Positions 4,256-60,106 of a stretch of 64,000 bases of DNA are shown in pieces; the stretch's first letter is position 1, and every line of letters starts with the position of its first letter. The DNA lies in assembly GCA_964493305.1 (NCBI GenBank), contig CAZBLW010000002.1, positions 76,677 to 140,676 on the forward strand, read 5' to 3'. Both the position numbers and the translations under genes were made by a program. Source of the stretch: an uncultured Gammaproteobacteria bacterium (GTDB lineage Bacteria > Patescibacteriota > Patescibacteriia > S139-126). The notes below the pieces were generated by a model that was given only the letters and a program-made list of their open reading frames with translations, was not told the DNA's origin and made no database searches.

Positions 4256-7200
4256 ATGAAAAAGTTTCTTTTGTTTTCGTTTGGTTTGCTATTTCTGGTA
4301 TTTAACAGTTATTCACAAAGTCAGATGGATGGTTTTATATTACCAGCTGATGTAATGGAGAACGGTTGGCAATACTATTATAGTAGAAGTTTTTATTATG
4401 ATCAGAATCACTTGGGAGCTGATATTAATCTTGGTGAGGGAGTTCCTATCAAGGCGATAGCTACAGGTAAAATAGTTTTTTATGGTCCCGCATCAAGCTA
4501 TGGAGAATTGCTTGTAGCAATAGAGCATACTTTACCAGAAACAATTAATTTTTTGGATGCTAATGGTTCTATAAAAACAACAAACTCAATACTATCTATT
4601 TATGGTCATCTCCGTGCTAGTCAAATAAGGGGTGGTACACAACTTACTTGGAGTTACGGTCAGATTGTCCAGCAGGGAAGTATTATTGGTTATATTAATG
4701 ACGACGCACATAATGGTGATGGTGCCGAACATTTGCATTTAGGTATAAGATTATCTAACGAAGTTACGGCAAAAAGTGTAGATGGTTCAAAATGGCTTCG
4801 TGGTTATAAGATTAATGCTGATGGAACAAATTCAGGTATGCAAATATATTTTACAGATCCAATACCATGGATTTTAGGTCTAGCTCAATATCAATCTTCA
4901 CCATCCTGGCATTCTTATTCAAATAATCAACCATCTATTTCATTTGTCGATGCACATAATCGATATCCAAACAATATTATTGCCTATAATGTAAATAAAT
5001 TTATTGGTAATCCAAATGATAAGGGTGGTGGGAGATATGTGCACTATTGGTCATTTACTAATAATCCGATTAATAGTAATGGTGTCTGGGTTCAAGATTA
5101 TAAAAATACAAATGTAAATACCCGTTTTGGTATTGATGGCGAAACTGCGGTTATCCTAAATGAGCAAAATAAACAAGCTTATGTTGTTAAAGAAGGATTT
5201 TGGGGTTGGTATAAAAGACATGATGGGTATTATAATTTAGGTTCTCCTTTAACAGAAGAATATCAAGTAAATAGTAGTGGACATATGCGTCAAGATTTTA
5301 CTTTTGGGAAATTGTTATGGGCGCAACCTAGTACTGGAGGAGATTGGGAAATTATTCCTCTGTATAACAACATGTCTTACATGAATGAGTCTCGGATTAA
5401 TTTAGTATTTAACGAAGGTGGCGACAGACCTCTGCAGATAATTCCAAAGACAGTAAGAAACGAAGTTATTACCAAAGAAGGTGAACGTATTATTACTTAC
5501 TATCGCAACGGTGTACAGATACCTGCGCCACAGCCACAATCTTCAATCAGTGGCCAAGGTGGATATATTCCAGATAGCCCATTGTCAGGTGTAGAAATTT
5601 GGCATGGGAGTGAATATCTTGGAAATACCCCATTAGAAATCAATGGGTATGAAAGCTTTATTTACGAACTCACAGCTAAAGTGAATGGAGTGGATGTGCC
5701 TTTTTCTTTTGAAGCGCATGACGGCATGATAGTTGAAGTGCCAAGTAGCAATCCTTCAGGTGGTGGACTCGCAGTAGTGAATACTTTCACAATCACCCCA
5801 CCAAATCCAAATCCAGGTGGCGATAATGTAACGTTATCTGCAACACTTGGAAATACTTCTGGTAACTCAGCTTTTTATAACTATATTGAATTAGTAGTGT
5901 TGGATGCGAATTTTCAAAGCACTGGATTAAGAGAAGTAGCCTTTGATGTAACTATTCAAAATAGTAGTACCTATTCCATAAGCAGAACTTTTTCAATCAA
6001 TACTTCTGGAGAATATTATGCAGCAGTTCGTTACTCTATTGATAATCTGAACTGGAGTTATTTTGCTCCAGGAAGTGGGAACAATCCAGTATGGTTTCGC
6101 GTAGGTTCAGCACCAGCGCCAACAGGTGAATTAAAAGTAAGTTCATTTGTAGCTCAGAATGCGGATAACCTAGAACCAAACGAACCTCATTCGCTTGAAA
6201 TAACTCTTAATGAAACTTTAGGAGAACCAGTATTATATGATGTTAGTGTTGATCTTTTGGATGCACAGATGCAAATGGTTACCTATCAGCTTTCATATTG
6301 GGACAGCATAACAGTGAATGCAAATGGTAGTTGGGTGGGATTTGCGCCTAGTATTTCTATTGCGAATACTGGGCAATATTATTACCGAGTACGAGGATTT
6401 AACTATAGTACCAGTCAATGGTCTGTATTAAATACTACTGGTTCGGGAGTCAATCCTTTAGGAGTATCGGTAACAGAAGATAGTGTAGTACAAATACATC
6501 ACTGGGCATACATACCCGATACCTTAAAGGTGGATACTACTTTTACTGGATGGTGTAATTTAGAAATACCAGTTGGTAATGCAGTAGTGTATGACACTGT
6601 TGCATTTTGGATTTTAGATAGTCAGATGCAGAAAGTCGGAGAGGCAAACCAACGATTTACTAATGTAACATTTAATCCAAATGTAGGAGTCAATTTTCCT
6701 GTTGTGATGACCACTCCTTCAATTCCAGATCTATATTATGTCGAAGCAGTAGGTTATATGAGTGGTGGATGGAGCCAGTTTCAACCAATATGGAATTTAG
6801 CAAATCCGAAACCATTATTTGTATATTCTGAAGTAATCAGTGGCACTGTAGTCTTAGATCAATTCTCAGTTTTACAAACCCCTATTATTTGGTGTGATAG
6901 TCTCAGGGTAGTTGTACAATTGAAAGAGACAAATGGTTATCCATTGTATTTGGATTCAATAAAAGTTGCGTTGAAAAGTAATACAGGTACTTTTATACGG
7001 TATTGTGAATACAAATGGACGAATGTATTTATTGAGGCTAATGAAACATTTGACTTAGGTACATTTCGTGAATTGATTTACGATCCCATGGGTACTTTGA
7101 TGAGTAAAACATATCAATTGGAAATCTTTTATAGCAGCGGAAGTGGTAGTTTAGTACATATGGGAACAAGTTCAGGAATAAATAATCCTATTACCTTTGA

Positions 7201-8704
7201 AGTAGTTGTACCTTCTGCTATTCAATCAAAAATTATCGCCAGTGACCCTTATCCTAGCGATCAATTTGGTTGGTCAGTAGATATTGATGGTGATTATTGT
7301 GTCGTTGGTTCAGCTAAAGATGATGATAAAGGCGCTGATGCGGGTTCAGCATATGTATATCATTTGGTAAATAACGTGTGGACTCAGATAGCTAAAATTA
7401 CTGCCAGTGATGGAGCTGCTGGTGATTGGTTTGGCTCAGCAGTTGCGATAGATGGCAATTATATATTGGTTGGATCGCAATTTGATGATGATAGAGGTAC
7501 AAGTACAGGTGCAGCCTATCTATATTATATAAATAAGACTACTCAAGAAGTATTCCAAACCAACAAAATATGTCCATCATATCTATCAGGTGGCATGTTA
7601 TTTGGTGCCGCAGTGGATATATCTGGAGATAAAATAGTTATTGGTACTCCGTATTTTTATAACGGAGGTGCTGCTTATTTATTCTATCGCGAAGATGAAA
7701 GTGTTCGTAGTTATCAAAGAATCAATGAGTATAATGGCACAAATGGAGATATGTATGGGTATTCAGTTGCTATCAATGGCGATTATGTGGTAGTTGGAGC
7801 AAATTCAGATGCTAATACAGTATCTCGTGGTGGTGCTGCATATGTCTATTATTATAATCTTAATGATCTTTATGTAACTGAGTTAGGGAAAATAGTACCT
7901 AATGATGTAGCTATTGATGATTTTTTTGGGTATGATGTTGCAGTTGAATATCCTTATGTAGTGTCCTCAAGTCGTGGCGATGATGATAAAGGTTCAAATT
8001 CTGGTTCATTTTATGTATATAAATCTGATTCATCTGGGTTTTCCCAATTTGCAAAACTCACGGCATTTGATGGAGCTGCAAATGATCAATTTGGACATAG
8101 AGTAGATATTTGTTCTGAATATATTGTCAGTTCTGCATATTTTGATGTAGCTGGTTATTATCGTTCTGGTTCAGCTTACCTGTTCAGGGTTGTTGATGAT
8201 ACCGTATTCTATATGCGGAAAATTATACCTAGTGATGGTAGGAATAATGATAATTTTGGTTATTCTTTGGCAATAGATCAAGGTAGAATAATTGCCGGAT
8301 CATATTATGATGATCATAGTAATTTTGTTGATCCAGGTTCTGCATATATTTATACAGGATTTACTTCTGTTCCATTGGCTAAACAATCCATATTTGAACA
8401 GGAATTAGGTGAGTTTCAAATCCCAGAGCAGTACACATTAGAATCAAACTATCCAAATCCATTTAACCCGTCAACGACTATAAAGTATAGTCTGCCAACT
8501 ACAGAACAGGTATCACTGAAAGTATATAATATACTCGGTCAGGAAGTAATTACTTTAGTTGATGAACTGCAGGATGCTGGATATAAACAGATTGTGTGGA
8601 ATGGTAGAGATTCCTACGGTAGTCAAGTTGCTAGCGGTGTCTATATTTACCGTCTGCAAACAGATAAATTCGTACAAAGTAAAAAGATGATATTACTTAA
8701 ATAA
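4256..8704 (+). CDS. Large secreted multidomain protein (1482 aa): N-terminal M23-type metallopeptidase domain, about seven FG-GAP (integrin-alpha-like) repeats, and a C-terminal T9SS-type sorting domain (Por_Secre_tail-like)
   Basis: Strong Shine-Dalgarno (aaaaggagtaagaa) and a signal peptide. M23 motifs HLGAD...HLHLG. Repeats such as DQFGWSVDIDGDYCVVGS...GSAYVY occur about seven times. The C-terminus NYPNPFNPSTTIKYSLP...VSLKVYNILGQEV...WNGRD..G..VASGVYIYRLQ...KKMILLK fits the T9SS C-terminal-domain consensus. Confidence 0.7.
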   Translation: MKKFLLFSFGLLFLVFNSYSQSQMDGFILPADVMENGWQYYYSRSFYYDQNHLGADINLGEGVPIKAIATGKIVFYGPASSYGELLVAIEHTLPETINFLDANGSIKTTNSILSIYGHLRASQIRGGTQLTWSYGQIVQQGSIIGYINDDAHNGDGAEHLHLGIRLSNEVTAKSVDGSKWLRGYKINADGTNSGMQIYFTDPIPWILGLAQYQSSPSWHSYSNNQPSISFVDAHNRYPNNIIAYNVNKFIGNPNDKGGGRYVHYWSFTNNPINSNGVWVQDYKNTNVNTRFGIDGETAVILNEQNKQAYVVKEGFWGWYKRHDGYYNLGSPLTEEYQVNSSGHMRQDFTFGKLLWAQPSTGGDWEIIPLYNNMSYMNESRINLVFNEGGDRPLQIIPKTVRNEVITKEGERIITYYRNGVQIPAPQPQSSISGQGGYIPDSPLSGVEIWHGSEYLGNTPLEINGYESFIYELTAKVNGVDVPFSFEAHDGMIVEVPSSNPSGGGLAVVNTFTITPPNPNPGGDNVTLSATLGNTSGNSAFYNYIELVVLDANFQSTGLREVAFDVTIQNSSTYSISRTFSINTSGEYYAAVRYSIDNLNWSYFAPGSGNNPVWFRVGSAPAPTGELKVSSFVAQNADNLEPNEPHSLEITLNETLGEPVLYDVSVDLLDAQMQMVTYQLSYWDSITVNANGSWVGFAPSISIANTGQYYYRVRGFNYSTSQWSVLNTTGSGVNPLGVSVTEDSVVQIHHWAYIPDTLKVDTTFTGWCNLEIPVGNAVVYDTVAFWILDSQMQKVGEANQRFTNVTFNPNVGVNFPVVMTTPSIPDLYYVEAVGYMSGGWSQFQPIWNLANPKPLFVYSEVISGTVVLDQFSVLQTPIIWCDSLRVVVQLKETNGYPLYLDSIKVALKSNTGTFIRYCEYKWTNVFIEANETFDLGTFRELIYDPMGTLMSKTYQLEIFYSSGSGSLVHMGTSSGINNPITFEVVVPSAIQSKIIASDPYPSDQFGWSVDIDGDYCVVGSAKDDDKGADAGSAYVYHLVNNVWTQIAKITASDGAAGDWFGSAVAIDGNYILVGSQFDDDRGTSTGAAYLYYINKTTQEVFQTNKICPSYLSGGMLFGAAVDISGDKIVIGTPYFYNGGAAYLFYREDESVRSYQRINEYNGTNGDMYGYSVAINGDYVVVGANSDANTVSRGGAAYVYYYNLNDLYVTELGKIVPNDVAIDDFFGYDVAVEYPYVVSSSRGDDDKGSNSGSFYVYKSDSSGFSQFAKLTAFDGAANDQFGHRVDICSEYIVSSAYFDVAGYYRSGSAYLFRVVDDTVFYMRKIIPSDGRNNDNFGYSLAIDQGRIIAGSYYDDHSNFVDPGSAYIYTGFTSVPLAKQSIFEQELGEFQIPEQYTLESNYPNPFNPSTTIKYSLPTTEQVSLKVYNILGQEVITLVDELQDAGYKQIVWNGRDSYGSQVASGVYIYRLQTDKFVQSKKMILLK

Positions 8705-9901: not shown

Positions 9902-9950
9902 GAAATAAATTATTAATTACTAATGAATTTTTAATTCTAGATTCTTCACC

Positions 9951-9998
9951 CTGTTAAATTGCTACGCACCGCCTGAGGCGGATTTAACAGGGTCAATT
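9951..9998 (-). promoter_or_regulatory. Long hairpin in the cbiM 5' region / downstream of tRNA-Arg
   Basis: ccctgttaaat...(cgcc tga ggcg)...atttaacaggg: an 11-bp perfect outer stem with an inner GC stem. No U-run on the minus strand. Confidence 0.35.
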
Positions 9999-10007
9999 CT
10001 AATTATC

Positions 10008-10082
10008 TGGTACCCCCGAGAGGAATCGAACCTCTATATCCAGCTTAGAAGGCTGGTGTTCTATCCGTTGAACTACAGGGGC
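10008..10082 (-). tRNA. tRNA-Arg (anticodon TCT)
   Basis: Reverse complement GCCCCTGTAGTTCAACGGATAGAACACCAGCCTTCTAAGCTGGATATAGAGGTTCGATTCCTCTCGGGGGTACCA. Anticodon loop CTTCTAA, T-loop TTCGATT, CCA encoded. Confidence 0.75.
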
Positions 10083-10182
10083 AGGTTATTATAATTATTA
10101 TTTTTTTAAAGCTTAGTCCCGCCACCAGGGCGGGATGCTCAATTTTGTATCTCCTCGCTTTGACTCGGAGACAAAATTGGCA

Positions 10183-10216
10183 AAGGCTGGTGTTCTATCC
10201 GTTGAACTACAGGGGC
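10183..10216 (-). repeat. Exact 34-nt duplicate of the 5' half (nt 1-34) of tRNA-Arg(TCT)
   Basis: aaggctggtgttctatccgttgaactacaggggc is identical to 10049-10082. The copy ends inside the anticodon loop. Confidence 0.8.
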
Positions 10217-10221
10217 TAAAC

Positions 10222-10342
10222 CTTATAAAAATATCTAAAAAATTGAGAAAGGTCAAGATAAATAATTATAAATTTTCAATTATAAATTATAAATGGACTA
10301 ATCTTGTGTTTATAATTTACAATTTATAATTTAAAATTAATT
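10222..10342. repeat. AT-rich direct and inverted repeats 'ataaattataaat' adjacent to the recombinase gene (possible arm-type sites)
   Basis: aattataaattttcaattataaattataaatgg and tttataatttacaatttataattt are reiterated between the tRNA fragment and the recombinase stop. Confidence 0.4.
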
Positions 10343-11317
10343 TTACTTTTTCTTATGGTGAAAATTTTTGTGAATTTCTTTGAGTTGACGATTGGTAATG
10401 TGCGTATAAATTTGGGTAGTGGTGATGGAAGCATGTCCGAGCATAGCTTGGACCGATCTGATATCAGCCCCGTTTTGCAAAAGGTCCGTGGCAAAAGAAT
10501 GACGCATAGTGTGAGGAGTGACCTTTTTGGTGATGCCGGCAGCTTTACTATAAAACTTAATCAATCTTTCTACGCTTCTTGGTGTCAGGGCGTGAACCAC
10601 TTTATCATCCTTTTTCAATCTTTTTGTTTTGGCTCGATCATGTCCGACAAAAAGTGATGGATCCAGATCTTGTCTTTTTTCCAAATAAGCTCGCAAGGTT
10701 GTTTTAGCTTTGTCAGACAAAAATACTAAACGATTTTTTCCACCCTTACCCGTGACTGTAAATTCATCTTTTTTTAAATTGACCTGTTCTCTGGTCAAAG
10801 AGGTCAATTCAGAGACACGTAAACCAGTAGAAAAAAGCATTTCCAAAATCGCTTGATCGCGTAATTTAATAATCTCTCTTTGGGTTGTGGTATGAGGGGA
10901 GTTTAGTAATCTTTCCAAGTCATCATTTTCCAAAAAATCTACTTCTCTTTCTGGTTGTTTAGCCAATTCTATCTTTTCTGCCGCCAAAGTTTTGACATCT
11001 TGCTTGGCTAGATATTTTAAAAATGAACGCAAGGCAATAAGGTGATAATTTTGGGTAGATTTTTTCAAAGCTTTGCCCCGTTGGTCGGTTTGTCGGTTTA
11101 GCCAGAGACGAAATTGTTTTATTTTCGGCAAGGAAATATCAGTTGGTTTAAGATTTTTTTTATTCAACCAAGAAAAAAATCTTAGTAAGTAAAAACTATA
11201 GTTTCGTACTGTGCGCAACGACCTACCTTTTTCAATTTCCAAGTAATTCAAAAAATCATTGGCCCAGCGACCCAAAGAACCAAAATTGTCCAATTTTTTA
11301 CTGGTGTTATCTGACAT
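10343..11317 (-). CDS. Tyrosine recombinase (XerC/XerD/phage-integrase family)
   Basis: 324 aa. N-terminal SAM-like core-binding region. C-terminal HTMRHSFATDLLQNGADIRSVQAMLGHASITTTQIYTHI carries the R..H.R.Y catalytic signature. Confidence 0.8.
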   Translation of the reverse strand: MSDNTSKKLDNFGSLGRWANDFLNYLEIEKGRSLRTVRNYSFYLLRFFSWLNKKNLKPTDISLPKIKQFRLWLNRQTDQRGKALKKSTQNYHLIALRSFLKYLAKQDVKTLAAEKIELAKQPEREVDFLENDDLERLLNSPHTTTQREIIKLRDQAILEMLFSTGLRVSELTSLTREQVNLKKDEFTVTGKGGKNRLVFLSDKAKTTLRAYLEKRQDLDPSLFVGHDRAKTKRLKKDDKVVHALTPRSVERLIKFYSKAAGITKKVTPHTMRHSFATDLLQNGADIRSVQAMLGHASITTTQIYTHITNRQLKEIHKNFHHKKK

Positions 11318-11570: not shown

Positions 11571-11930
11571 ATGTTAGATAAAAAGAAAAAAGAGGATATT
11601 ATCAAAAAATATCGCACCCACAAAAGTGATACTGGTTCCAGTGAAGTCCAGATTGCTATTTTAACAGCAGAAATTGAAGATTTGACTAAGCATTTAAAAA
11701 AACACAAGAAAGACCATTCTTCGCGCCGGGGTTTAATTAAAAAAGTCATTCAAAGAAAAAGACTGCTTAGATATTTAGAAAAAGAAAATCAAGATAGTTT
11801 CAATAAGTTGTGTAAAAAATTGGGCATCAAAATGACCCCGCTGACTACTCCCGAAGAAGAAGAGGATTTTATCAGAGCGGAAAGTGAGGAAGAAGAAGTA
11901 GAAGAAGTAGGTCCCTCTGACGAAGAATAA
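11571..11930 (+). CDS. rpsO: 30S ribosomal protein S15 with an acidic C-terminal extension
   Basis: MLDKKKKEDIIKKYRTHKSDTGSSEVQIAILTAEIEDLTKHLKKHKKDHSSRRGL... matches S15. The likely start is the ATG at 11571 (RBS aaagga). An Asp/Glu-rich tail of about 35 aa follows. The track ORF from 11520 is an upstream overcall. Confidence 0.8.
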   Translation: MLDKKKKEDIIKKYRTHKSDTGSSEVQIAILTAEIEDLTKHLKKHKKDHSSRRGLIKKVIQRKRLLRYLEKENQDSFNKLCKKLGIKMTPLTTPEEEEDFIRAESEEEEVEEVGPSDEE

Positions 11931-20814: not shown

Positions 20815-23283
20815 ATGAATAAGTATTATGATCACAAAAAAATAGAAGCCAAATGGCAACAGGCTTGGGAAAATTCCGCTGTGTTTACAGCTAGGGAAAA
20901 AAGTGACAAGCCAAAATATTATGCTTTGTGTATGTTTCCTTATCCTTCAGCTGCCGGACTTCACGTCGGTCATCCCGAAAGCTATACGGCTATTGATATC
21001 ATAGCTCGATTTAAACGACATAATGGTTACAATGTTTTGAATCCGATTGGCTGGGATGCTTTTGGTTTACCAGCGGAAAATTATGCTATCAAAGTGGGTA
21101 CTCCGCCTTGGCAAACTACTGCTGCTAGTATTGAAAATTTTCGGCGACAAATAAAATCTTTTGGTTTTTCTTATGATTGGTCGCGGGAGGTAAACACTTC
21201 GGATCCAAATTATTACCGTTGGACACAATGGATGTTTTTGCAAATGTACCATCATGGTTTGGCTTATAAAAAGCAAGCCAAGGTGAATTGGTGTGAAAAT
21301 TGTCAAACAGTACTAGCCAATGAGCAGGTGATAGATGGTCGTTGTGAACGTTGCCAGCACGAAGTACAACAAAAAGATTTAGCTCAATGGTTTTTCAAAA
21401 TTACAGACTATGCTGAAGAGTTATTGGCGGGACTTGATGATTTAGATTGGCCCGGACATATAAAAGTTGCCCAACGTAATTGGATAGGTAAAAGTGAAGG
21501 AGCGGAAATAGAATTTAGAATTCACCCTGTTAAATCCACCTTTGGTGGTGTAAAGCAATTTAACAGGGTAAAGAATGAAGAATTGAGTATCAAGGTATTC
21601 ACTACCAGACCGGATACTTTGTATGGAGCGACTTATATGGTTTTGGCACCGGAGCATGAGTTATTACAGAAGCTAGAATCAAGAATAAAGAATAAAGAGG
21701 AGGTCAATAAATATCTAGCTGCTACAAAGAAAAAATCTGATTTGGAAAGAACCAATTTAAATAAAGAAAAAACCGGAGTAGAATTGCAAGGTATCAAAGC
21801 AATCAACCCCGCCAACAATAAAGAGTTGCCAATTTTTATAGCTGATTATGTTTTAAGTACCTATGGTACCGGAGCAATCATGGCAGTCCCAGCTCATGAT
21901 AGTAGAGACTGGGAATTTGCCAAAAAATACAACTTGGAAATTATTGAGGTTATTAAATCAAAAAATAATTCCCCAGCTGATCAAACTGATTTATTTACTG
22001 GTCAAGGTGTTTTGATTAACTCCGGCGAGTTTACTGGTCTGGATAGTGAAGTGGCTAAAGAAAAAATTTCTCAACAGGTTGGTGGAATAATGCAAACTCA
22101 ATATCGACTCAGGGACTGGTTGGTTTCTCGGCAAAGGTATTGGGGAGCGCCAATTCCGATTATTTATTGTGATCATTGTGGCGAGGTAGCTGTGCCGGAA
22201 AAAGATTTGCCAGTACTACTTCCCCAGGATGTTGACTTTAAACCTACTGGCCAATCTCCTCTAGTTAGCTCTCAAGAGTTTCATCAAGTTGCTTGCCCAC
22301 AGTGTGGTAGTACAAAGAATGTCAGACGCGAGGTTGATACCATGGATACTTTTGTGTGTTCTAGTTGGTATTGGTTGCGTTATACTGATCCGACTAACTC
22401 TACCGCACCTTTTGCCAAAGACAAGACTGCTTACTGGTTGCCAGTTGATTTATATATAGGCGGAGCGGAGCATGCGGTATTGCATCTATTGTACGCTAGA
22501 TTTTTTACCAAGGCGTTGCGAGATTTTGGGTTTATCCAAATCAATGAACCATTTTTACGGTTACGCAACCAAGGTATGATTTTGGGCGAGGATAGTCAAA
22601 AAATGTCTAAATCGCGAGGCAATGTAATCAATCCTGATTCCGTGGTCGAGGAGTATGGTGCTGATACCATGCGTCTTTACGAAATGTTCATGGGCCCATT
22701 GGAAGATTCTAAACCTTGGTCAACTACAAGTATAATCGGTATGCGCCGATTTTTAGAAAAAATTTGGTTGGTGGTTGATGAGTGGATTGACAATGGTAAA
22801 CCCGCTACAGAATCAGTCAAACTAAATCGATTGTTTGCCCAAACTCTCAAGAAGGTAACTACTGATATTGAAAATATTAAATTCAATACTGCCATTGCAG
22901 CGATGATGATTTTGGTAAATCAAATGGCCAAAGCCAAATCTTTTTCGGTTGAAAATTTAAAAAGTTTTTTAATAGTTTTAAGTCCGTTTGCTCCTCATAT
23001 AGCTGAAGAGTTATGGGCTACAATTGGTCAGGCCGGTTTGATAAGTGAGCAAGTTTGGCCGAGTTGGGATGAAAAATTATTGCAAGTAGACAGTATTACC
23101 ATAGCCGTTCAGGTCAATGGTAAATTACGTGGTAATCTATTGGTTGCAACAAATACTAGCGAAGCAGAAATAAAGTCAGCCGCCAAAAATTTGGAAAATG
23201 TAGCAAAGCATATACAAGGCAAGCAGATTAAAAAAGAAATTTATATTCCCGGTAAGATTGTGAATATTGTGATTAAAGAATAG
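20815..23283 (+). CDS. leuS: Leucyl-tRNA synthetase
   Basis: HIGH motif (GLHVGHP), KMSKS (KMSKSRGN) and zinc-knuckle cysteines (CENCQT...CERCQH). 822 aa. Confidence 0.9.
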   Translation: MNKYYDHKKIEAKWQQAWENSAVFTAREKSDKPKYYALCMFPYPSAAGLHVGHPESYTAIDIIARFKRHNGYNVLNPIGWDAFGLPAENYAIKVGTPPWQTTAASIENFRRQIKSFGFSYDWSREVNTSDPNYYRWTQWMFLQMYHHGLAYKKQAKVNWCENCQTVLANEQVIDGRCERCQHEVQQKDLAQWFFKITDYAEELLAGLDDLDWPGHIKVAQRNWIGKSEGAEIEFRIHPVKSTFGGVKQFNRVKNEELSIKVFTTRPDTLYGATYMVLAPEHELLQKLESRIKNKEEVNKYLAATKKKSDLERTNLNKEKTGVELQGIKAINPANNKELPIFIADYVLSTYGTGAIMAVPAHDSRDWEFAKKYNLEIIEVIKSKNNSPADQTDLFTGQGVLINSGEFTGLDSEVAKEKISQQVGGIMQTQYRLRDWLVSRQRYWGAPIPIIYCDHCGEVAVPEKDLPVLLPQDVDFKPTGQSPLVSSQEFHQVACPQCGSTKNVRREVDTMDTFVCSSWYWLRYTDPTNSTAPFAKDKTAYWLPVDLYIGGAEHAVLHLLYARFFTKALRDFGFIQINEPFLRLRNQGMILGEDSQKMSKSRGNVINPDSVVEEYGADTMRLYEMFMGPLEDSKPWSTTSIIGMRRFLEKIWLVVDEWIDNGKPATESVKLNRLFAQTLKKVTTDIENIKFNTAIAAMMILVNQMAKAKSFSVENLKSFLIVLSPFAPHIAEELWATIGQAGLISEQVWPSWDEKLLQVDSITIAVQVNGKLRGNLLVATNTSEAEIKSAAKNLENVAKHIQGKQIKKEIYIPGKIVNIVIKE

Positions 23284-54922: not shown

Positions 54923-55095
54923 TATTATCTAGTGGCGGGACACTCGGGTTAAGTACCCCAGAATGTCGATATTATAAGAGTATTATAGGGCTTTTTTGGC
55001 TTTCTGAACAGAGGCGGACTTGAGGCATGTGGGTCGGGGTCTGATTTTTGCAAATGGGACAAATGGGACATTTTTTGTGGATGTTGTCCCGAGTC

Positions 55096-56223
55096 TCATT
55101 TGATCAGCTTCAACAGATCCTCCTCGCCCTCGTATCCCCTCAATCTTCCGGACAAAACTCCGAGCCGATAATTTACTCCGTCGGTCATCAGCCGCCAATT
55201 GGTATTCTCAAGAACTTTCTTGAGAATCTTTTTTAAATCGTATTCGCTTGTCCGGCTTTCGCGGCCGGTTTTTGAATCCTGAACAGTGAACGGCACGACT
55301 ACATTTCTGTCTATTTCGGGATTGGCCAACTGCAGATGAATATAGCTTTCTTTTTCCAATGCTGGCGCAAGCAGTTTTTCCAGCTCTATAACAGTTAGTT
55401 TCTTTATTTTGGCAACCTTGTCGTAAAGTCCTTTGTTCTTATCTCTTTCCTTCCATTCTTCTACGAGTTTTCCCATTTGTTCCATGTTGTAGAGTTCCTG
55501 TCTCCATTTTTCGCCCTCTTCCTTGGAAAGGCAGAATTTTGCGCGGTCGGCCTCAAAATCATGATCGGGTTTTTCTTCTTGGTTTGCCGTACGCTTTAAT
55601 TCGTCGGTTTTGGCATAACCGCAGGATAGACACTTAAAATTCGTAATAAACTTGGTTTTGGTTGTTTTATCTTTAACTTCTAGGGCCTTGCCACACTTAG
55701 GGCAAAGGTCGGGTTTAGATTTCCATTCCTCGCCATTGTCATAGAATGCTCGGCGCGGCAGACAGCCGTTCGGACAGTCAAACATAAAAAGAACTCGATC
55801 CGGCTCATTCAGTCCTCCTGTCCAAAGATCTTTATCAAGAAGCTTCATTATGCTTCGGCATTTCAAGCACCGGACTTCCGCCGGAGGCTGCGCCGATTCA
55901 TATAATCTATCTTTGGCTTCATCTCTGGTCATCCATTCCCGGATCGTTTCTTCCTTGTGCAGATATCTATCGCCTTTTTCAAACATCAAACTCCAATCAC
56001 GAGCCATGCTGGATACAACTTCTATCATTCTCTGCGACGGTTTCTTGCCCATAATAAGCGGGGAGTGCTTCATTGGCTGAGAATGAAGTTTTACAAGACG
56101 GCGGCACCTTTCAACAGTATGGCGATCGTATAAATCGCCATAGTAAGTTGCGTCTTTAAGATTTTTTGTTGGCTCGTTCATTAATGTTTTTGGTTCTTCT
56201 TTTGAACTCTTTTTGTATGTCAA
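55096..56223 (-). CDS. Hypothetical zinc-ribbon protein (375 aa), last gene of the five-gene minus-strand operon
   Basis: Two CxxC...CxxC clusters (RCLKCRS...FDCPNGC; CPKCGK...FKCLSCGY). No known catalytic motif. Its start overlaps the upstream gene. Confidence 0.45.
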   Translation of the reverse strand: MTYKKSSKEEPKTLMNEPTKNLKDATYYGDLYDRHTVERCRRLVKLHSQPMKHSPLIMGKKPSQRMIEVVSSMARDWSLMFEKGDRYLHKEETIREWMTRDEAKDRLYESAQPPAEVRCLKCRSIMKLLDKDLWTGGLNEPDRVLFMFDCPNGCLPRRAFYDNGEEWKSKPDLCPKCGKALEVKDKTTKTKFITNFKCLSCGYAKTDELKRTANQEEKPDHDFEADRAKFCLSKEEGEKWRQELYNMEQMGKLVEEWKERDKNKGLYDKVAKIKKLTVIELEKLLAPALEKESYIHLQLANPEIDRNVVVPFTVQDSKTGRESRTSEYDLKKILKKVLENTNWRLMTDGVNYRLGVLSGRLRGYEGEEDLLKLIK

Positions 56224-56899
56224 AAGAATTGATTGGCTTTCTGAAAAGGAAGCACTTATTCTGATTCTCTTTCGGCACTACATAATCAATCAAGCTTTTG
56301 CCGTCTGGTGTGCCGCAGTGAATCTGGTGAACGAATTCTTTGCCGTACTTCTGTGGATCATTGAAATCGCAGTAGTATAAATAGTCCTCGGTATTTAATT
56401 GGAAAACATGCGAAGTCCCGTGGCCGAAGAAATATACCTCTTTTATGCTTTTATCACTCATGATCTTTTCTATATCCTTGAAATTAGCGTCCGGATAAAA
56501 AGAAAAATCCTGTCCTTTTGCTTTTAAATATTTAACGAGTGATTCTATTTCGCTTTTGAGAAAATTGTGCTTAATCCAAGCCTCCATCTTAAACCAGTCA
56601 GACCGCCCTAAAACAACAACTGCTTCTGCCGGAACGTTTTGTTTAAAGCCTTTTAAATACTTTCTCAAAAGATAGTTCTGAATCGGGAAAACTATTGCTG
56701 TTATGGGCGAAAGAAAAAACAACAAGAAGTCTTCTCGGAAATAAATAATACCGTAAATGACCACAAAAAAGAGATGAAGAAAGACAACCGAAAGCCAGCC
56801 ATGCCCTGTTGCCAGCAGGTATATTAAAGCCCCGACATAAAAAAAGAATTGGATAAGACTTGTGTCTGTTCTTCTGAGAAATTTTTTGAGGTCATTCAT
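56156..56899 (-). CDS. Two-TM membrane protein with a soluble domain carrying a His...Cys dyad (speculative caspase/CHAT-like), 247 aa
   Basis: Two N-terminal TM helices, then ...VYFFGHGTSHVFQL...HQIHCGTPDG, reminiscent of HG / Q-x-x-C-G caspase-fold dyads. Low confidence. Confidence 0.35.
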   Translation of the reverse strand: MNDLKKFLRRTDTSLIQFFFYVGALIYLLATGHGWLSVVFLHLFFVVIYGIIYFREDFLLFFLSPITAIVFPIQNYLLRKYLKGFKQNVPAEAVVVLGRSDWFKMEAWIKHNFLKSEIESLVKYLKAKGQDFSFYPDANFKDIEKIMSDKSIKEVYFFGHGTSHVFQLNTEDYLYYCDFNDPQKYGKEFVHQIHCGTPDGKSLIDYVVPKENQNKCFLFRKPINSFDIQKEFKRRTKNINERANKKS

Positions 56900-56919
56900 G
56901 CAATTTGCAGTAAAAATTA

Positions 56920-59160
56920 TTATTCTAGGCCGCGCTTCATTAATTCAATTTCTTCGTCGGTTCGTTTCTGCTCATAGGCAATTCTCTGATCTAAATAGTC
57001 TTCATATTCCTTAACAAATTTCTTAACTCGCTTATCAGAATCCTTTTTAAGATCTTGAATTTCCTGTTTTTTTGACTGATACGCCCTCACAAAGCCATCT
57101 TCGCCGGAAACAACGCCTGTTTGCGATAAAAATCCAAATAAATGACCGCTAACCTCTTTATATTCTTTGGTGCCAGCATATTGCTGAACCAAAGCCTTAA
57201 CAATAGGCCACAAAAATTTTCCTCCTTGGTATTTGCCAAGAATAGAAAAAACAATATCTCTGCTGTTTTTAGTTCCTTTCTTTATAAGGATAACCAATGA
57301 TTGCTCGAGGGTGGGACTAAAGCCAGGAAATATTTCCTCAAAGAGATGACTTACCTCCCATTTAAACAGCCAATTGTGTTTTTTGCCGCCATCACCATAC
57401 CAACTTAGTAATATGGGTACTAATATTTTTTCGTGTTGCCTCAATACCTCTCCAAGCTTATGAAAATTAAACGGAACGCCATCGTATCTGTCATTAATAT
57501 CTCTTTTTCTTTTTGATTTTGTTTCAACCCTTTTATGAAAAAAATCGATAATCTTTTTTGGATATTTTTCGGCAATAGGCTTCAATATTTCTTCCGCCCG
57601 ATAATCTATATCTGGAAGCAATAATAAACCATCGAGAATTACATCAAATTCTTTTTGGGTAAGATCTGGAAAAATTGTTGCGCCTTTAAACCATAGGTTA
57701 TCAACCCACCACGTGTCTTTAAGTTTTGCCAGCTCTTTGATAATTTCTAAAAAAACAGGCTTAAGATTCTTATGTTTTGCGTAATGATGTAAAACAGATC
57801 GAAGGATATTATTTAAAGCGCGAGTATCTTTAATATCTTTCGCCTTTTTAACAATCTTATTAAAAAGTTTATCATCGATCTCATCCACTACCACGAATAT
57901 AAAAGCCAAGACATACAGATACTTTCCTTCGTCCATCCACTTAGAAATTATCTTTTTTGCTTGTTGTTTTTTGCTGCTTTTCCAGAGACCAGATAATAAG
58001 CTAAGCAGAAATGGCGCAAGCTCTTTCTCGTTTTTTTCGATTAAAAGTATTCCGAGATTTGGTTTTCTATTGCCGAGTTCCGACAAAAATGTTTCAAAAT
58101 ATCCATAACTACCGGGCTCTGCCGCTGAATAATTTTTTACTACTTTCAAAATTTTTTGCCGCCATTCTTCAAAGTTCTCGTCAGAGATACTGGAAACAAA
58201 CTCGTTAATTTTTTGAGTACGAGTTTCCCTGTCTCTATTGAAATCATAGTCTGGGTCAAGCCTTCCATCGTATCCCACAAATACTCTAAACATGCTGTAG
58301 GCGGAGTTTGATCGGATCGCTTCTTCAAGTTCATTTAATTTTTGGGGTGGTTCTTTTTTAAACCGCCTGACAAACCATATTTTTTGTTCTTCGATATCCT
58401 GGATTATTTCATTCTCTGCATTCGGTAAAATTTCAAGATAAAAAGCTATGATATTATTTGTATCTTCTAATACCATCTGTTCCATATCATCGCCATAAAC
58501 ATGACTATGGGGTGTTTGGGTAGCTCCCTGTAGAGTCTGAAGGGTTTTTGTTTTTTGACCCAGATTGCTTGAAAGTGAATAGATTTTCTTGAGCAACGAT
58601 ATAGTACGACTGCGTATTTTTTTAAGATTATCGGAAACAATTAATGGACCCGAATGCAAAGTAAAAGTTCTATAGTCAGGCATTGAATGTCCTTCAAATG
58701 TTGGTTCGAGTAATTCTTTTGCTATTACAAACAAAATTTCAAGATTTTTGCTTATTCTTTTATCGCTCCAGCTTTCTACCTCATCCATTATTAAATTTTG
58801 TATTTTATATTCTATCTGCTGTAAAACAAATAAATTATACTGCGACAAATGCTCAAATGTTTTTAAAACTTCGGACTGAATAGCTTTGTTACCAGTTTGA
58901 TATAAACGCTCAAGCAATCCGATAATCTTTTTGGTTTCCAAATATTTAATTTTCCCTAGTATTTTTACGCATTGGATTAAAATATCTTCGTGAGATTTTC
59001 CATACAATTTTCCAAACCCCTTTAAATATGAAGCCTTCGCTTTCATCGGCTTTCTACTCACAACCAATTGAACAGCCTTAAATGCTTTATCGGGAGTAAT
59101 ATGGGCATACTCCTCAAGAAGTTCCAAATTATTAAAAATTTCATCGTTATTTTTTGACAT
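56920..59160 (-). CDS. Large all-alpha (HEAT/ARM-like?) hypothetical protein (746 aa)
   Basis: No TM helices and no Walker motifs. The helical-repeat character is judged by eye. Confidence 0.4.
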   Translation of the reverse strand: MSKNNDEIFNNLELLEEYAHITPDKAFKAVQLVVSRKPMKAKASYLKGFGKLYGKSHEDILIQCVKILGKIKYLETKKIIGLLERLYQTGNKAIQSEVLKTFEHLSQYNLFVLQQIEYKIQNLIMDEVESWSDKRISKNLEILFVIAKELLEPTFEGHSMPDYRTFTLHSGPLIVSDNLKKIRSRTISLLKKIYSLSSNLGQKTKTLQTLQGATQTPHSHVYGDDMEQMVLEDTNNIIAFYLEILPNAENEIIQDIEEQKIWFVRRFKKEPPQKLNELEEAIRSNSAYSMFRVFVGYDGRLDPDYDFNRDRETRTQKINEFVSSISDENFEEWRQKILKVVKNYSAAEPGSYGYFETFLSELGNRKPNLGILLIEKNEKELAPFLLSLLSGLWKSSKKQQAKKIISKWMDEGKYLYVLAFIFVVVDEIDDKLFNKIVKKAKDIKDTRALNNILRSVLHHYAKHKNLKPVFLEIIKELAKLKDTWWVDNLWFKGATIFPDLTQKEFDVILDGLLLLPDIDYRAEEILKPIAEKYPKKIIDFFHKRVETKSKRKRDINDRYDGVPFNFHKLGEVLRQHEKILVPILLSWYGDGGKKHNWLFKWEVSHLFEEIFPGFSPTLEQSLVILIKKGTKNSRDIVFSILGKYQGGKFLWPIVKALVQQYAGTKEYKEVSGHLFGFLSQTGVVSGEDGFVRAYQSKKQEIQDLKKDSDKRVKKFVKEYEDYLDQRIAYEQKRTDEEIELMKRGLE

Positions 59161-60106
59161 AATGGAGTAGCTTATCTGCTTCTTTCTTTACATATTCAAA
59201 AACGACCGGATGCCGGACGTCGGCTAAATTCTTATAAATTTGTAATTTCTGTTTATGCTCGGGGAATAAACTTAATAACTTATCGAGGTCAATTTTATTG
59301 ATAGTTTCATACAGGATCAGTAATCCCACGTCCTGCTTAACCTCATCCTTCACTAACTTAAAAATGTAGGTGTCTTTGTCTTTATAAATTAATTGCTGTG
59401 CATGCAGGCTCGAGAGAATATCATTCATCTGGCGATCGGTTAACTTCAACATTTTTGCGATAGCTTTGCGTTCAGATTTTGTCACCCTGCCAACCAGATA
59501 AATAATGCTGGCAACAAGGAGTATCTTGTCTTTTAGTTCTACTGCGATATCCAATATTTCCTTCGGTAAATCCAAAAATTCATTTTTCTTCGCAAGGTTT
59601 TTAATATGAATATAAAATTGGTCGACGAAATCATTCTTCCCGATCTTTAATGGCCGGAGATTCGGAATACGAATATTATTGCTGTTTGGTTTATTTGTTT
59701 TATTTAATATTTCAACATTGACATTGCTAAAGTGATACCACCATATTTGCGAATCGTTTTGTTTTTCTGACTCTTCGGCAATATTAGCCACTACAAATAA
59801 AATTGTTGGGAGATTAATTTCTTTACAAAATTCAATTAATTTACGAGAGCTGACATAGGTGCTATTTTCAATTTTTTTCTCGGAACCTTTTAACTGGAAG
59901 AAAACCACATTATTTAAATACTTGCCTCGCATTTTCACATTTGGTTCGGGTTCCCTTAAGCGCAAGAATCCATCTGTGTCAGGAGTGTTATCTTTTATGC
60001 CGTGAAATTGTAAATCAAACTTATCTCCATGTTTATTCATGAAGTAATCACCAACGATAGATACCGCCTTTTCATCAAGCCGATTTTGTTTATTGTATTT
60101 ACTCAT
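59147..60106 (-). CDS. Hypothetical protein with an N-terminal PD-(D/E)xK-like (restriction-endonuclease-fold, DUF4365-like) region and a C-terminal wHTH-like region (319 aa)
   Basis: ...PDTDGFLRL...VVFFQLKGSEK... suggests a D...(Q/E)xK nuclease core. The C-terminus is helix-turn-helix-like. It overlaps its neighbours by 8-14 nt, which suggests an operon. Confidence 0.35.
   Translation of the reverse strand: MSKYNKQNRLDEKAVSIVGDYFMNKHGDKFDLQFHGIKDNTPDTDGFLRLREPEPNVKMRGKYLNNVVFFQLKGSEKKIENSTYVSSRKLIEFCKEINLPTILFVVANIAEESEKQNDSQIWWYHFSNVNVEILNKTNKPNSNNIRIPNLRPLKIGKNDFVDQFYIHIKNLAKKNEFLDLPKEILDIAVELKDKILLVASIIYLVGRVTKSERKAIAKMLKLTDRQMNDILSSLHAQQLIYKDKDTYIFKLVKDEVKQDVGLLILYETINKIDLDKLLSLFPEHKQKLQIYKNLADVRHPVVFEYVKKEADKLLHYVKK

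Follow-up and report, generated by a model that had tools for sequence, protein, structure and literature searches.

A 34-nt Half Copy of tRNA-Arg(UCU) as the Probable Stump of a Displaced tRNA Gene in a Patescibacteria Genome

The 34-nt half copy located upstream of the intact tRNA-Arg(UCU) gene in the window, by which we mean the whole 64,000-nt stretch of DNA analysed here, is the front part of a tRNA-Arg(UCU) gene that previously resided there and was cut between nucleotides 34 and 35, immediately after the wobble base. The DNA that interrupts it consists of a hairpin-rich insert of ~100 nt, termed S, and a complete tRNA-Arg(UCU) gene, and the old 3′ half has been lost, while the ancestral promoter has been retained by the stump. 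The full reading, in which incoming S and a whole tRNA gene displaced the resident and the stump was later homogenised into an exact copy of the newcomer, is the one that we favour with moderate confidence.

The tRNA-Arg locus and its exact half copy

The features of the locus are listed below in descending coordinates, with the basis of each in brackets; L165 is a relative with the same layout.

10343-11317, minus strand: gene of an Xer-family tyrosine recombinase of 324 aa (NCBIfam, Pfam, structure matches, and synteny)
10257-10342, no strand assigned: AT-rich spacer with direct and inverted 11-mers, following the xer stop codon (variable)
10217-10256, minus strand: ancestral tRNA promoter block and short leader (conserved in relatives; consensus scan)
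10183-10216, minus strand: stump, i.e., repeat copy R1, corresponding to tRNA nucleotides 1-34 (exact match to R2)
10083-10182, minus strand: insert S, 100 nt (absent from six relatives; homologue only in L165)
10136-10182, minus strand: hairpin 1 of S (fold prediction)
10117-10135, minus strand: GC hairpin 2 of S, TCCCGCC-N5-GGCGGGA (fold prediction)
10108-10116, minus strand: conserved CTAAGCTTT in S (window versus L165)
10083-10107, minus strand: AT-rich, poorly conserved tail of S with a TATAAT-like box (window versus L165)
10008-10082, minus strand: intact tRNA-Arg(UCU) gene, allele A, with encoded CCA (ARAGORN call tRNA-Arg(tct); Rfam, 70.6 bits)
10049-10082, minus strand: repeat copy R2, nucleotides 1-34 of the intact tRNA-Arg (34-mer)

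The intact tRNA-Arg gene at 10008-10082 is presumably functional, and a tRNA-Arg(UCU) is needed because AGA and AGG together account for 39% of the arginine codons in the six open reading frames counted. The half copy lies 100 bp upstream of this gene, which gives a repeat period of 134 bp. The 34-mer has only two matches in the 64 kb with up to three mismatches allowed, compared to none expected from shuffled sequences. The repeat ends at the wobble base U34, and the identity ceases at both edges of the 34-mer. Since the stump has nucleotides 1-34 alone, it is without the parts required for a cloverleaf, and neither ARAGORN, intron mode included, nor Rfam calls a tRNA at 10183-10216. An exact copy of tRNA nucleotides 1-34 at this place had been reported in the preliminary description, and it is borne out by the 34-mer search, the shuffles, ARAGORN, and Rfam.

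An assembly artefact as the source of the repeat is ruled out by two kinds of data. Three independent Logan assemblies stop inside the repeat at a k-1 = 30 nt overlap, at either the first or the last 30 nt of it, as a genuine repeat with a length of 31 nt or more would make them do. In L165, whose two copies differ in sequence, the same architecture is assembled straight through on a contiguous contig. Together with such an artefact, a group I intron at 34/35, either degenerate or reduced to a remnant, makes up an explanation that is hardly credible. Group I introns are common in the tRNA genes of Patescibacteria, and one Bacillota genome is listed with an intron at 34/35 of its tRNA-Arg(TCT) (PMC13011429). 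However, no Rfam intron match is obtained even at E ≤ 10, the 134 nt are too short by the criterion of ~200 nt or more and would end in U rather than in G, and the intron mode of ARAGORN calls the intact gene only.

The promoter is composed of TTGACC at 10256-10251 and TATTTT at 10233-10228, separated by a 17-nt spacer. This block is conserved in L005, L006, L007, L085, L086, L168, and L169 and is identical at 41/41 positions in L165. In the window it adjoins the half copy and not the intact gene, whereas in relatives it abuts the intact tRNA directly. On the minus strand inside S, the consensus scan predicts no terminator-like site and no second sigma-70-like promoter. As far as these scans allow, transcription would start at the ancestral promoter and read through the stump and S, and RNase P could then cut away a structured leader of ~140 nt to free the intact tRNA. 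The TATAAT-like box in the tail of S may also allow some initiation.

Two tRNA-Arg alleles and the displacement of the resident gene

The preliminary description had proposed a search of related genomes for an uninterrupted tRNA-Arg locus, and such loci do exist. The 134-bp insertion is absent from six relatives (L005, L006, L007, L085, L168, and L169), in which the promoter abuts nucleotide 1 of the tRNA gene. The uninterrupted gene is present in two forms that differ at 17/75 positions, namely allele A in L005, L085, L007, and L169 and allele B in L006 and L168.

The relative L165, whose Xer shows 91.7% protein identity to that of the window, has the layout of the window, consisting of promoter, stump, S, and an intact allele-A tRNA (74/75), and its break falls at the same phosphodiester bond. 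Its stump is identical to allele B, which is functional in L006 and L168, at 33/34 positions, compared to 28/34 for its own downstream tRNA, or allele A. Since the half copy of L165 thus matches another allele, one that is still functional in two sister genomes, the half copy can be identified as what is left of a displaced gene; this relic stump allele is documented by L165 as the one relative. The intact gene of L165 is allele A over all 75 nt and is not a hybrid, which means that the incoming DNA carried a whole tRNA, since a 134-bp circle entering at nucleotide 34 would result in a chimeric, mispaired tRNA. The downstream flank of the tRNA is ancestral, as GATAATTAGAATT is common to the window and L006. 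A search of the window for a remnant of the former allele-B 3′ half found none.

The stumps of the window and L165 differ at six positions, and at all six the window stump equals the intact gene of the window, which argues for conversion rather than drift. In the lineage of the window, the intact neighbour would have overwritten the stump by short-tract gene conversion, and this later conversion could account for the exactness of the repeat. Gene conversion is inefficient over a tract of 34 nt that contains six mismatches, and the state observed in the window would equally result if the insertion had occurred independently in a resident gene of allele A. Identical 34-bp direct repeats located 100 bp apart are likely to be prone to deletion, and such a deletion would yield the clean layout of promoter plus allele A adopted by other relatives. 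In this respect, the window may have captured a single-copy tRNA gene partway through its replacement.

The alleles also bear on a local origin of the repeat, in which the promoter-proximal region and the 5′ half would have been duplicated in tandem through slippage or microhomology, with the spacer diverging afterwards. The exactness of the repeat, its 134-bp period, a TTATAA equally distant from both copies, and a direct match of 12/14 between the start of S and the promoter (D17, CCTTTGCCAATTTT versus CCTTTCTCAATTTT) are in line with such a duplication. However, matches of this kind are at chance level for an AT-rich region, where many of equal quality are found, and S is otherwise unrelated to the local sequence apart from this weak resemblance to the promoter. 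The duplication is effectively refuted by L165, in which the stump allele differs from that of the intact gene, and we regard it as highly improbable. A 22-nt inverted match between S and the promoter (I9) was likewise rejected as being at chance level for the AT-rich region.

The neighbouring Xer gene and the AT-rich spacer

The recombinase gene is situated 126 bp from the repeat and outside both copies. Its translation shows the catalytic R, K, HxxR, H, and Y residues and the motifs GLRVSEL, GKGGKNR, HTMRH, and LGH...IYTH. Pfam assigns to it a Phage_integrase domain (PF00589, 137.8 bits) and an N-terminal SAM-like core-binding domain (PF02899), and its best solved-structure matches are XerA (4a8e) and XerD (1a0p). 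Among the NCBIfam models, only the cutoff of XerA (NF040815) is exceeded, with 227.9 bits against 220, whereas XerD (253 bits, cutoff 329.6) and XerC (246 bits, cutoff 335) both stay below theirs. The gene is similar to the chromosomal Xer genes (XerA, XerD, and XerC) in domain architecture, catalytic residues, database and structure matches, and conserved synteny across the phylum, and it differs from them by its scores below the XerC and XerD equivalog cutoffs.

Homologues of the recombinase at E ≤ 1e-100 number 2583. In 160 loci, xer homologues of 57-90% identity are found in the order rpsO-pnp, xer, tRNA-Arg, and tRNA-His, and xer also stands beside the uninterrupted tRNA-Arg in the six relatives without the insertion. 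Because tRNA-Arg(TCT) follows xer in 100 of the 143 informative Patescibacteria loci, the recombinase is a neighbour and not cargo. No second recombinase or integrase gene and no xer paralogue was found in the window. A loose dif-like pattern gave 22 matches compared to 15 expected, with no convincing site among them, and the GC skew shows no switch at the locus (10 kb). The Xer tree is poorly resolved and does not tell one ancestral event apart from transfer between lineages.

Direct and inverted AT-rich repeats are indeed present at 10255-10354, as described before, but their interpretation as arm-type sites does not stand. They are of low complexity and are not conserved in relatives, the length and sequence of the spacer differ in every relative, and in L086 the spacer is 9 nt only and the repeats are absent. 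The repeats of the window are unalignable even with those of the closest relative, L165. The spacer is thus a bystander. Closer relatives were also sought via the protein cluster, but the contigs for P0129 (L167) and a second contig with P0125 (L166) end in the AT-rich spacer and are uninformative on the tRNA locus. Collectively, we can conclude that the recombinase is a conserved chromosomal Xer gene and a bystander, and that it and the AT-rich repeats have no demonstrable part in the tRNA rearrangement.

These data bear directly on the classical integrase scar, for which an element encoding the adjacent tyrosine recombinase would have crossed over in the anticodon loop and then lost its cargo, so that only 100 bp now separate attL from attR. 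In its favour, integrated elements usually leave partial tRNA genes as their footprint (PMC9897764), the 100 nt are flanked by directly repeated tRNA sequence whose end falls in the anticodon loop, and a gene for a tyrosine recombinase is close by. However, this recombinase lies outside the repeats, is Xer-like and conserved across Patescibacteria, and is present at empty sites, and the putative arm sites are not conserved. The duplicated part is the 5′ half and the native promoter is on the truncated copy, which is the reverse of the classical geometry. Moreover, the stump and the intact gene of L165 are different alleles with no hybrid, a state that a 134-bp attP circle cannot yield. In L100, a locus with the same breakpoint that is described below, the junctions share too few nucleotides for an overlap region. 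Such a scar is accordingly improbable. Of the integrative element proposed in the preliminary description, it holds that foreign DNA once entered the gene at its anticodon loop, whereas the classical integrase geometry, the arm sites, and the recombinase as part of the element do not, the latter being of Xer type, outside the repeats, and in phylum-wide synteny with tRNA-Arg(TCT) and tRNA-His. For annotation, this calls for caution, as an exact repeat of a tRNA half beside a tyrosine recombinase gene resembles an att scar, but here it reflects a housekeeping neighbour and a repeat with a different history.

Insert S, the recurrent break at 34|35, and known systems

Between the window and L165, the hairpin part of S is identical at 71/76 positions (93%) and the tail at 14/27. 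The stems of hairpins 1 and 2 are kept, while the loops vary. The locus-wide DNA identity of the two, taken over xer and the downstream region, is ~80.5% and thus below the 93% of the hairpin part. This high conservation could be due to recent horizontal transfer and not to function. S is single-copy in the window and recurs, among the fetched loci, in L165 only. No other donor or homologue was found in the window, all fetched related loci, two viral-contig scans, one JGI metagenome scan, the phage and plasmid collections, or Rfam at gathering and lax thresholds. There are no evident terminal repeats or target duplication, and S does not show the multiple copies of MITE/RPE-like elements.

A multi-copy palindromic element adjoins the locus at 9941-10000 and is also found inside the LeuRS gene. 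The element at 9941-10000 is MITE/RPE-like, having dispersed copies with terminal repeats or target duplication.

The breakpoint recurs in other Patescibacteria, where layouts of a stump plus an intact gene broken at 34|35 are found for tRNA-His in L012, L095, L100, and L033. In L100, a complete new tRNA lies between both retained old halves. This is a clean insertion with inverted-repeat-like ends, CCTGCCCAA...TTGGGCTCGG, and its junctions share at most 1 nt. Candidate agents for the break at 34|35 are a recombinase, a nuclease that targets tRNA genes and whose cut is followed by capture of foreign DNA, and a palindromic, hairpin-forming element that inserts where the anticodon hairpin has its tip.

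The recurrence raises the possibility, to which we give limited credence, that S is a targeted mobile cassette. Alone or with a tRNA, S would be non-autonomous, insert at 34|35 of the cognate tRNA gene, and spread between lineages, driven by a trans-acting nuclease or recombinase such as the GIY-YIG genes at these loci or Xer, and it would be tolerated by virtue of the replacement copy. The break at 34|35 is found in at least three independent contexts, namely Arg (window and L165), His (L012, L095, and L100), and His (L033). The cassettes of L012 and L100 are 95.7% identical over 184 nt compared to ~76% for coding DNA, and the excess identity of the S hairpin part over its locus as well as the clean insertion in L100 also favour such a cassette. 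In addition, GIY-YIG open reading frames adjoin these tRNAs in nine loci, and L008 consists of a 5′ fragment, a GIY-YIG gene, and an intact tRNA-Arg. On the other hand, the S sequences of different lineages are unrelated, no second copy of S occurs in the 64 kb or in the fetched loci except L165, no nuclease is encoded in the window, the fragment in L008 is broken at about nucleotide 41 and not at nucleotide 34, and an intact target site persists in the new tRNA.

A likeness of S to GIY-YIG genes is also not significant. A family profile and tblastn on S found no GIY-YIG open reading frame or remnant between the fragment and the intact gene. The idea that S is a decayed GIY-YIG gene, based on the frame QFCLRVKARRYKIEH versus EFCDNMARRYKEH of the L008 nuclease, was rejected as evidence and serves as a lead only; the profile and tblastn gave no match. 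Nucleotide alignment of S with GIY-YIG genes is at shuffle level, and its single match, to L055, is an A/T run. At the protein level, L008 alone of seven proteins gives p = 0.034 before correction for the seven tests.

A broader and still more tentative proposal, which we consider unlikely, is that Patescibacteria harbour a small hairpin-led insertion of an undescribed kind that enters tRNA genes at 34|35 and survives because it brings along either a whole tRNA or a 5′ half as replacement. If true, it would be a DNA-level alternative to an intron, moving between lineages via the conserved homology arms of tRNA genes. Its trigger might be a tRNA-gene-targeting nuclease or the ever-present neighbouring Xer, and the conserved hairpins of S would be functional as processing or recombination signals.

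Considering the displacement that we favour, an essential single-copy tRNA gene in a reduced genome could be exchanged for another allele without its loss at any time. The route would lead through an insertion-plus-stump intermediate that is then homogenised and can collapse by repeat deletion. Moreover, the recurrence at 34|35, the hairpins abutting the fragments, and the GIY-YIG genes all suggest that DNA is actively turned over at specific positions of tRNA genes in Patescibacteria, which appears not to have been described previously.

Several known systems share features with this locus. Homology-facilitated illegitimate recombination replaces genes by foreign DNA in naturally competent bacteria. 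Similar to that process, a foreign allele has been joined here at one non-homologous point, the downstream flank is ancestral, and a piece of the old gene is left; the differences are that the junction is not random, as 34|35 recurs in other tRNA genes, and that L100 keeps both halves. Rickettsia palindromic elements and other miniature palindromic insertions are short hairpin-forming inserts tolerated inside genes. S differs from the Rickettsia elements in being single-copy except for L165 and in having no evident terminal repeats or target duplication.

Group I introns interrupt tRNA genes of Patescibacteria in their anticodon loops (Nakagawa et al. 2026, PMC13011429), and they resemble the present case in that, within one phylum, a single-copy tRNA gene has foreign sequence in its anticodon loop, with 34/35 a known intron site for tRNA-Arg(TCT) elsewhere. 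Here, in contrast, there is no ribozyme or splicing, and it is the DNA itself that regains function, through a whole gene or a second 5′ half. The integration of mobile elements also leaves partial tRNA genes, with attL/attR repeats (reviewed in van der Gulik et al. 2023, PMC9897764), and these have the break in the anticodon loop in common with the window. In those cases, however, the insert is 9-23 kb, the 3′ half is repeated, and the native promoter is on the intact copy, whereas the insert here measures 100 bp, the repeat is of the 5′ half, and the native promoter is on the truncated copy. Integration systems differ further in that no integrase lies within the repeats here, and the copies in L165 are different alleles whose intact member is not a hybrid. 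The locus is an unusual variant of the known theme of tRNA gene fragments.

The half copy beside tRNA-Arg(TCT)

The locus belongs to a Patescibacteria genome of low GC content (35.8%), with best relatives that carry the label Candidatus Paceibacter. Read along the tRNA strand, its components are arranged in the following order:

11317-10343, minus strand: xer, a tyrosine recombinase gene of the Xer family
10257-10342: AT-rich spacer, with reiterated 11-mers at 10255-10354
10217-10256: promoter-like block
10183-10216: half copy of the tRNA gene (the stump)
10083-10182: 100-nt insert, S
10008-10082, minus strand: intact tRNA-Arg(TCT) (ARAGORN; Rfam, 70.6 bits)
9941-10000: 60-nt palindromic element
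Beyond this element: cbiM-like gene

The plus-strand 34-mer at 10049-10082 represents nucleotides 1-34 of the tRNA, the last base being the wobble U34, and an exact second copy is present at 10183-10216, with the intact gene lying 100 nt beyond it. This confirms the repeat noticed in the preliminary description, including its break in the anticodon loop. The two copies are the only matches to the 34-mer in the 64 kb at up to 3 mismatches (expected, 0), and the identity between them ends sharply at either side. Neither Rfam nor ARAGORN, the latter also in intron mode, recognises the half copy as a tRNA.

An identical recombinase gene was found in three Logan assemblies from different runs, each of which stops 30 nt into the repeat, and the contig with the cbiM-like gene opens with the repeat's last 30 nt. 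Breaks at these points are expected of a k = 31 assembler that meets a genuine repeat longer than k. In addition, the same layout is assembled without interruption in a relative having two non-identical copies (Logan contig L165). The repeat structure at tRNA-Arg is real.

Two other genes of the window may be recorded here. A 1482-aa protein at 4256-8704 combines an M23 peptidase domain with FG-GAP repeats and, at its C terminus, a weak sorting tail of the Por/T9SS type, which is unexpected for a Patescibacteria genome, and the ribosomal protein S15 at 11571-11930 carries an extra, strongly acidic C-terminal tail of ~30 residues (...EEEEDFIRAESEEEEVEEVGPSDEE).

Relatives of the locus and the origin of the half copy

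A conserved block, TTGACC - 17 nt - TATTTT - TATAA(A/G)GTTTA, touches nucleotide 1 of the intact tRNA in six relatives, which thereby supply the uninterrupted tRNA-Arg locus proposed earlier for comparison. In the window, the same block, also picked up by the consensus scan, adjoins the half copy and not the intact gene, which follows 100 nt on; the window therefore has a lineage-specific 134-bp insertion. The half copy occupies the ancestral position. In the relatives without the insert, the gene is so near to the orthologues of the block (10217-10256 in the window) that the predicted leader is ~5-6 nt.

The recombinase of the window falls in a cluster of 12 members at 90% identity, the closest of which, P0125 (91.7% protein identity), is encoded on L165. 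The two loci share ~80.5% DNA identity over xer and the downstream region, and the same bond is broken in both. Identical positions amount to 41/41 in the promoter block, 28/34 in the half copy, 71/76 in the hairpin part of S, 14/27 in its AT-rich tail, and 74/75 in the intact tRNA-Arg. The value for the hairpin part (93%), compared to that for the whole locus, suggests either hairpin constraint or recent transfer, as far as two sequences can indicate.

The L165 half copy, GCCCCAATAGTTCAAGGGATAGAATAGGAGCCTT, differs at 6/34 positions from its own intact tRNA (allele A) and at 1/34 from the functional, uninterrupted tRNA-Arg(TCT) allele of the related loci L006 and L168 (allele B). Alleles A and B differ at 17/75 positions, paired stems among them. 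It follows that the half copy is what remains of a displaced allele-B resident gene, that the incoming DNA comprised S and a complete allele-A tRNA, and that the perfect repeat of the window is secondary. The incoming tRNA would have been whole because a 134-bp circle crossing at nucleotide 34 would give a mispaired hybrid. Both alleles are also seen at one syntenic site (L005, L085, L007, and L169 versus L006 and L168), with Xer proteins 88-92% identical, and this shared site implies allele replacement inside the clade.

At all six positions at which the window stump differs from the L165 stump, it matches the window's own intact gene, a signature of gene conversion or, possibly, of an independent insertion into a resident gene of allele A. 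The best-supported reading is that of a displaced tRNA gene's stump, a hairpin-rich insert, and a replacement gene, with the stump homogenised later. No relic of the allele-B 3′ half was found in the window. The sequence directly 3′ of the intact gene, GATAATTAGAATT, is common to L006, which places the right side in its ancestral context.

The stump and S are predicted to fold into a four-way junction (-42 kcal/mol, z = -4.0) consisting of a closing stem (GGUUUAG/CUAAGCU), the stump D-arm, and two hairpins, one of them long and the other a 7-bp GC hairpin. L165 is predicted to fold in the same way (z = -3.1); between the two sequences the stems are kept, the loops differ, and the AT-rich tail changes freely. 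AGA and AGG together account for 39% of the Arg codons in six ORFs, indicating that the tRNA-Arg is needed. A scan of the minus strand within S predicted neither a terminator nor a second sigma-70-like promoter. In the simplest model, transcription from the ancestral promoter would read through and RNase P would then free the tRNA, while a TATAAT box 5 nt 5′ of the intact gene might add transcription. The proposed route would begin with a resident allele-B gene, into which S and allele A would enter after nucleotide 34 (the L165 state); the stump would then be homogenised (the window state), and the identical 34-bp repeats could finally recombine out to leave the promoter and allele A (the state of L005, L007, and L169). 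The Xer tree is weakly resolved and gives no order for these steps.

The recombinase and the AT-rich spacer

The recombinase combines a Phage_integrase catalytic domain with a SAM-like domain at the N terminus, and its translation shows the catalytic R, K, HxxR, H, and Y residues. It scores 253 bits with XerD, 246 with XerC, and 228 with XerA, the last being above that model's own cutoff, and far lower with the integron integrase model; its closest solved structures are Pyrococcus XerA and E. coli XerD. Homologues with 57-90% identity are found all over Patescibacteria. Where there is enough flank, xer is followed within 2.5 kb by a same-strand tRNA-Arg(TCT) in 100/143 loci, and tRNA-His is also next in 66 of these 100. 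Moreover, xer lies outside the repeat pair, and no other tyrosine recombinase was found in the 64-kb window. The recombinase, being Xer-like, syntenic, and external to the repeats, is a bystander and not, as had been supposed, part of an element.

The reiterated 11-mers at 10255-10354 are present and AT-rich, but the view that they are arm-type sites fares no better, since the stretch varies in length and sequence among L005, L006, L007, L085, L165, and L169 and is just 9 nt long in L086. Even with L165, the window's nearest relative, no alignment of the stretch is possible. These repeats are a variable spacer. The integrative-element reading, with the recombinase and arm sites as components, is not supported; its narrower form, inserted DNA that left a remnant at the anticodon loop, is supported.

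No convincing dif-like site was found. At ~50000-60000, GC skew is negative and gene orientation is reversed for ~10 kb before turning back, which fits a local inverted block or a lagging-strand operon better than a terminus.

tRNA fragments and repeat elements in Patescibacteria

A scan of 224 tRNA genes from 165 sources for partial copies revealed many close to tRNA-Arg and tRNA-His. At three tRNA-His cassettes (L012 5486-5668, L095 3976-4171, and L100 3114-3351), 5′ copies (nucleotides -1 to 34) stop exactly at nucleotide 34, 74-78 nt upstream of the gene, the identity extending into the leader in L095; in a fourth (L033 6314-6494), a 3′ copy (nucleotides 35-75) begins exactly at nucleotide 35, 65 nt downstream. 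L100 retains two old halves around an inserted complete tRNA-His, with at most 1 nt in common at the junctions. The 184-nt cassette is 95.7% identical between L012 and L100, compared to ~76% for coding DNA, and the L012 stump, together with the flank before it, is homologous to the normal sequence upstream of tRNA-His in L010. Other breakpoints are concentrated in the D- and T-loop regions.

At many tRNA-His loci (e.g., L010, L115, L012, L095, and L033), the leader and trailer are complementary and lengthen the acceptor stem by ~8-10 bp, and (C/T)ATG or CGTG precedes nearly all tRNA-His genes. At L081 5007-5352 (the same as L164), 5′ and matching 3′ fragments of one allele enclose a complete tRNA-Pro(CGG); next to it is a further tRNA-Pro copy with nucleotides 33-42 swapped for a 33-nt hairpin, and GAGGGAGT stands at the start of both insert junctions.

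In 161 Patescibacteria loci, CCGCC-N3-7-GGCGG hairpins are 12 times as dense within 300 nt of tRNAs (0.328 versus 0.027 per kb), and they often directly touch tRNA fragments, as in L024, L115, and L120. The window has two in 64 kb (9969-9981 and 10119-10133; expected, 0.08), both beside tRNA-Arg; the second, ATCCCGCC-N5-GGCGGGAC, shares its stem and flanks with an L115 hairpin. Furthermore, nine loci (L008 5145-5546, L031, L119, L086, L042, L043, L055, L124, and L025) carry small GIY-YIG nuclease ORFs (PF01541, 85-92 aa) immediately beside tRNA-Arg(TCT) or tRNA-His. The order in L008 is promoter, 5′ fragment of another tRNA-Arg allele whose D loop holds an inserted GC hairpin, GIY-YIG, and intact tRNA-Arg. 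Collectively, the breakpoints, the hairpins, and the GIY-YIG genes point to position-specific DNA turnover at Patescibacteria tRNA genes.

A ~60-nt palindromic repeat element (ACCCTGTTAAAT...CCRCC-N-GGYGG...ATTTAACAGGGT) occurs in the window (9941-10000 and 21517-21580), L165 (94-158), L166/L167 (1-36), and L007 (3849-3947), and copies lie upstream of xer in relatives. The first window copy, just 3′ of tRNA-Arg, has AGAATT on either flank and is missing from L005 and L006. The second, ~85% identical, is in frame within a LeuRS-like ORF (20815-23283), adding ~20 residues where the editing domain begins. In this behaviour, the element resembles the Rickettsia palindromic elements.

Integrating elements of 9-23 kb are known to leave partial tRNA genes as their footprint (PMC9897764). 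Patescibacteria tRNA genes frequently contain group I introns, and a Bacillota genome has an intron site at position 34/35 of its tRNA-Arg(TCT) (PMC13011429); S, considered as an intron, was rejected as having no intron signature. Neither paper describes 5′-half stumps with ~100-nt inserts. The locus varies a known theme in an unusual way, and it would gain weight if the specificity for the bond between nucleotides 34 and 35 were general.
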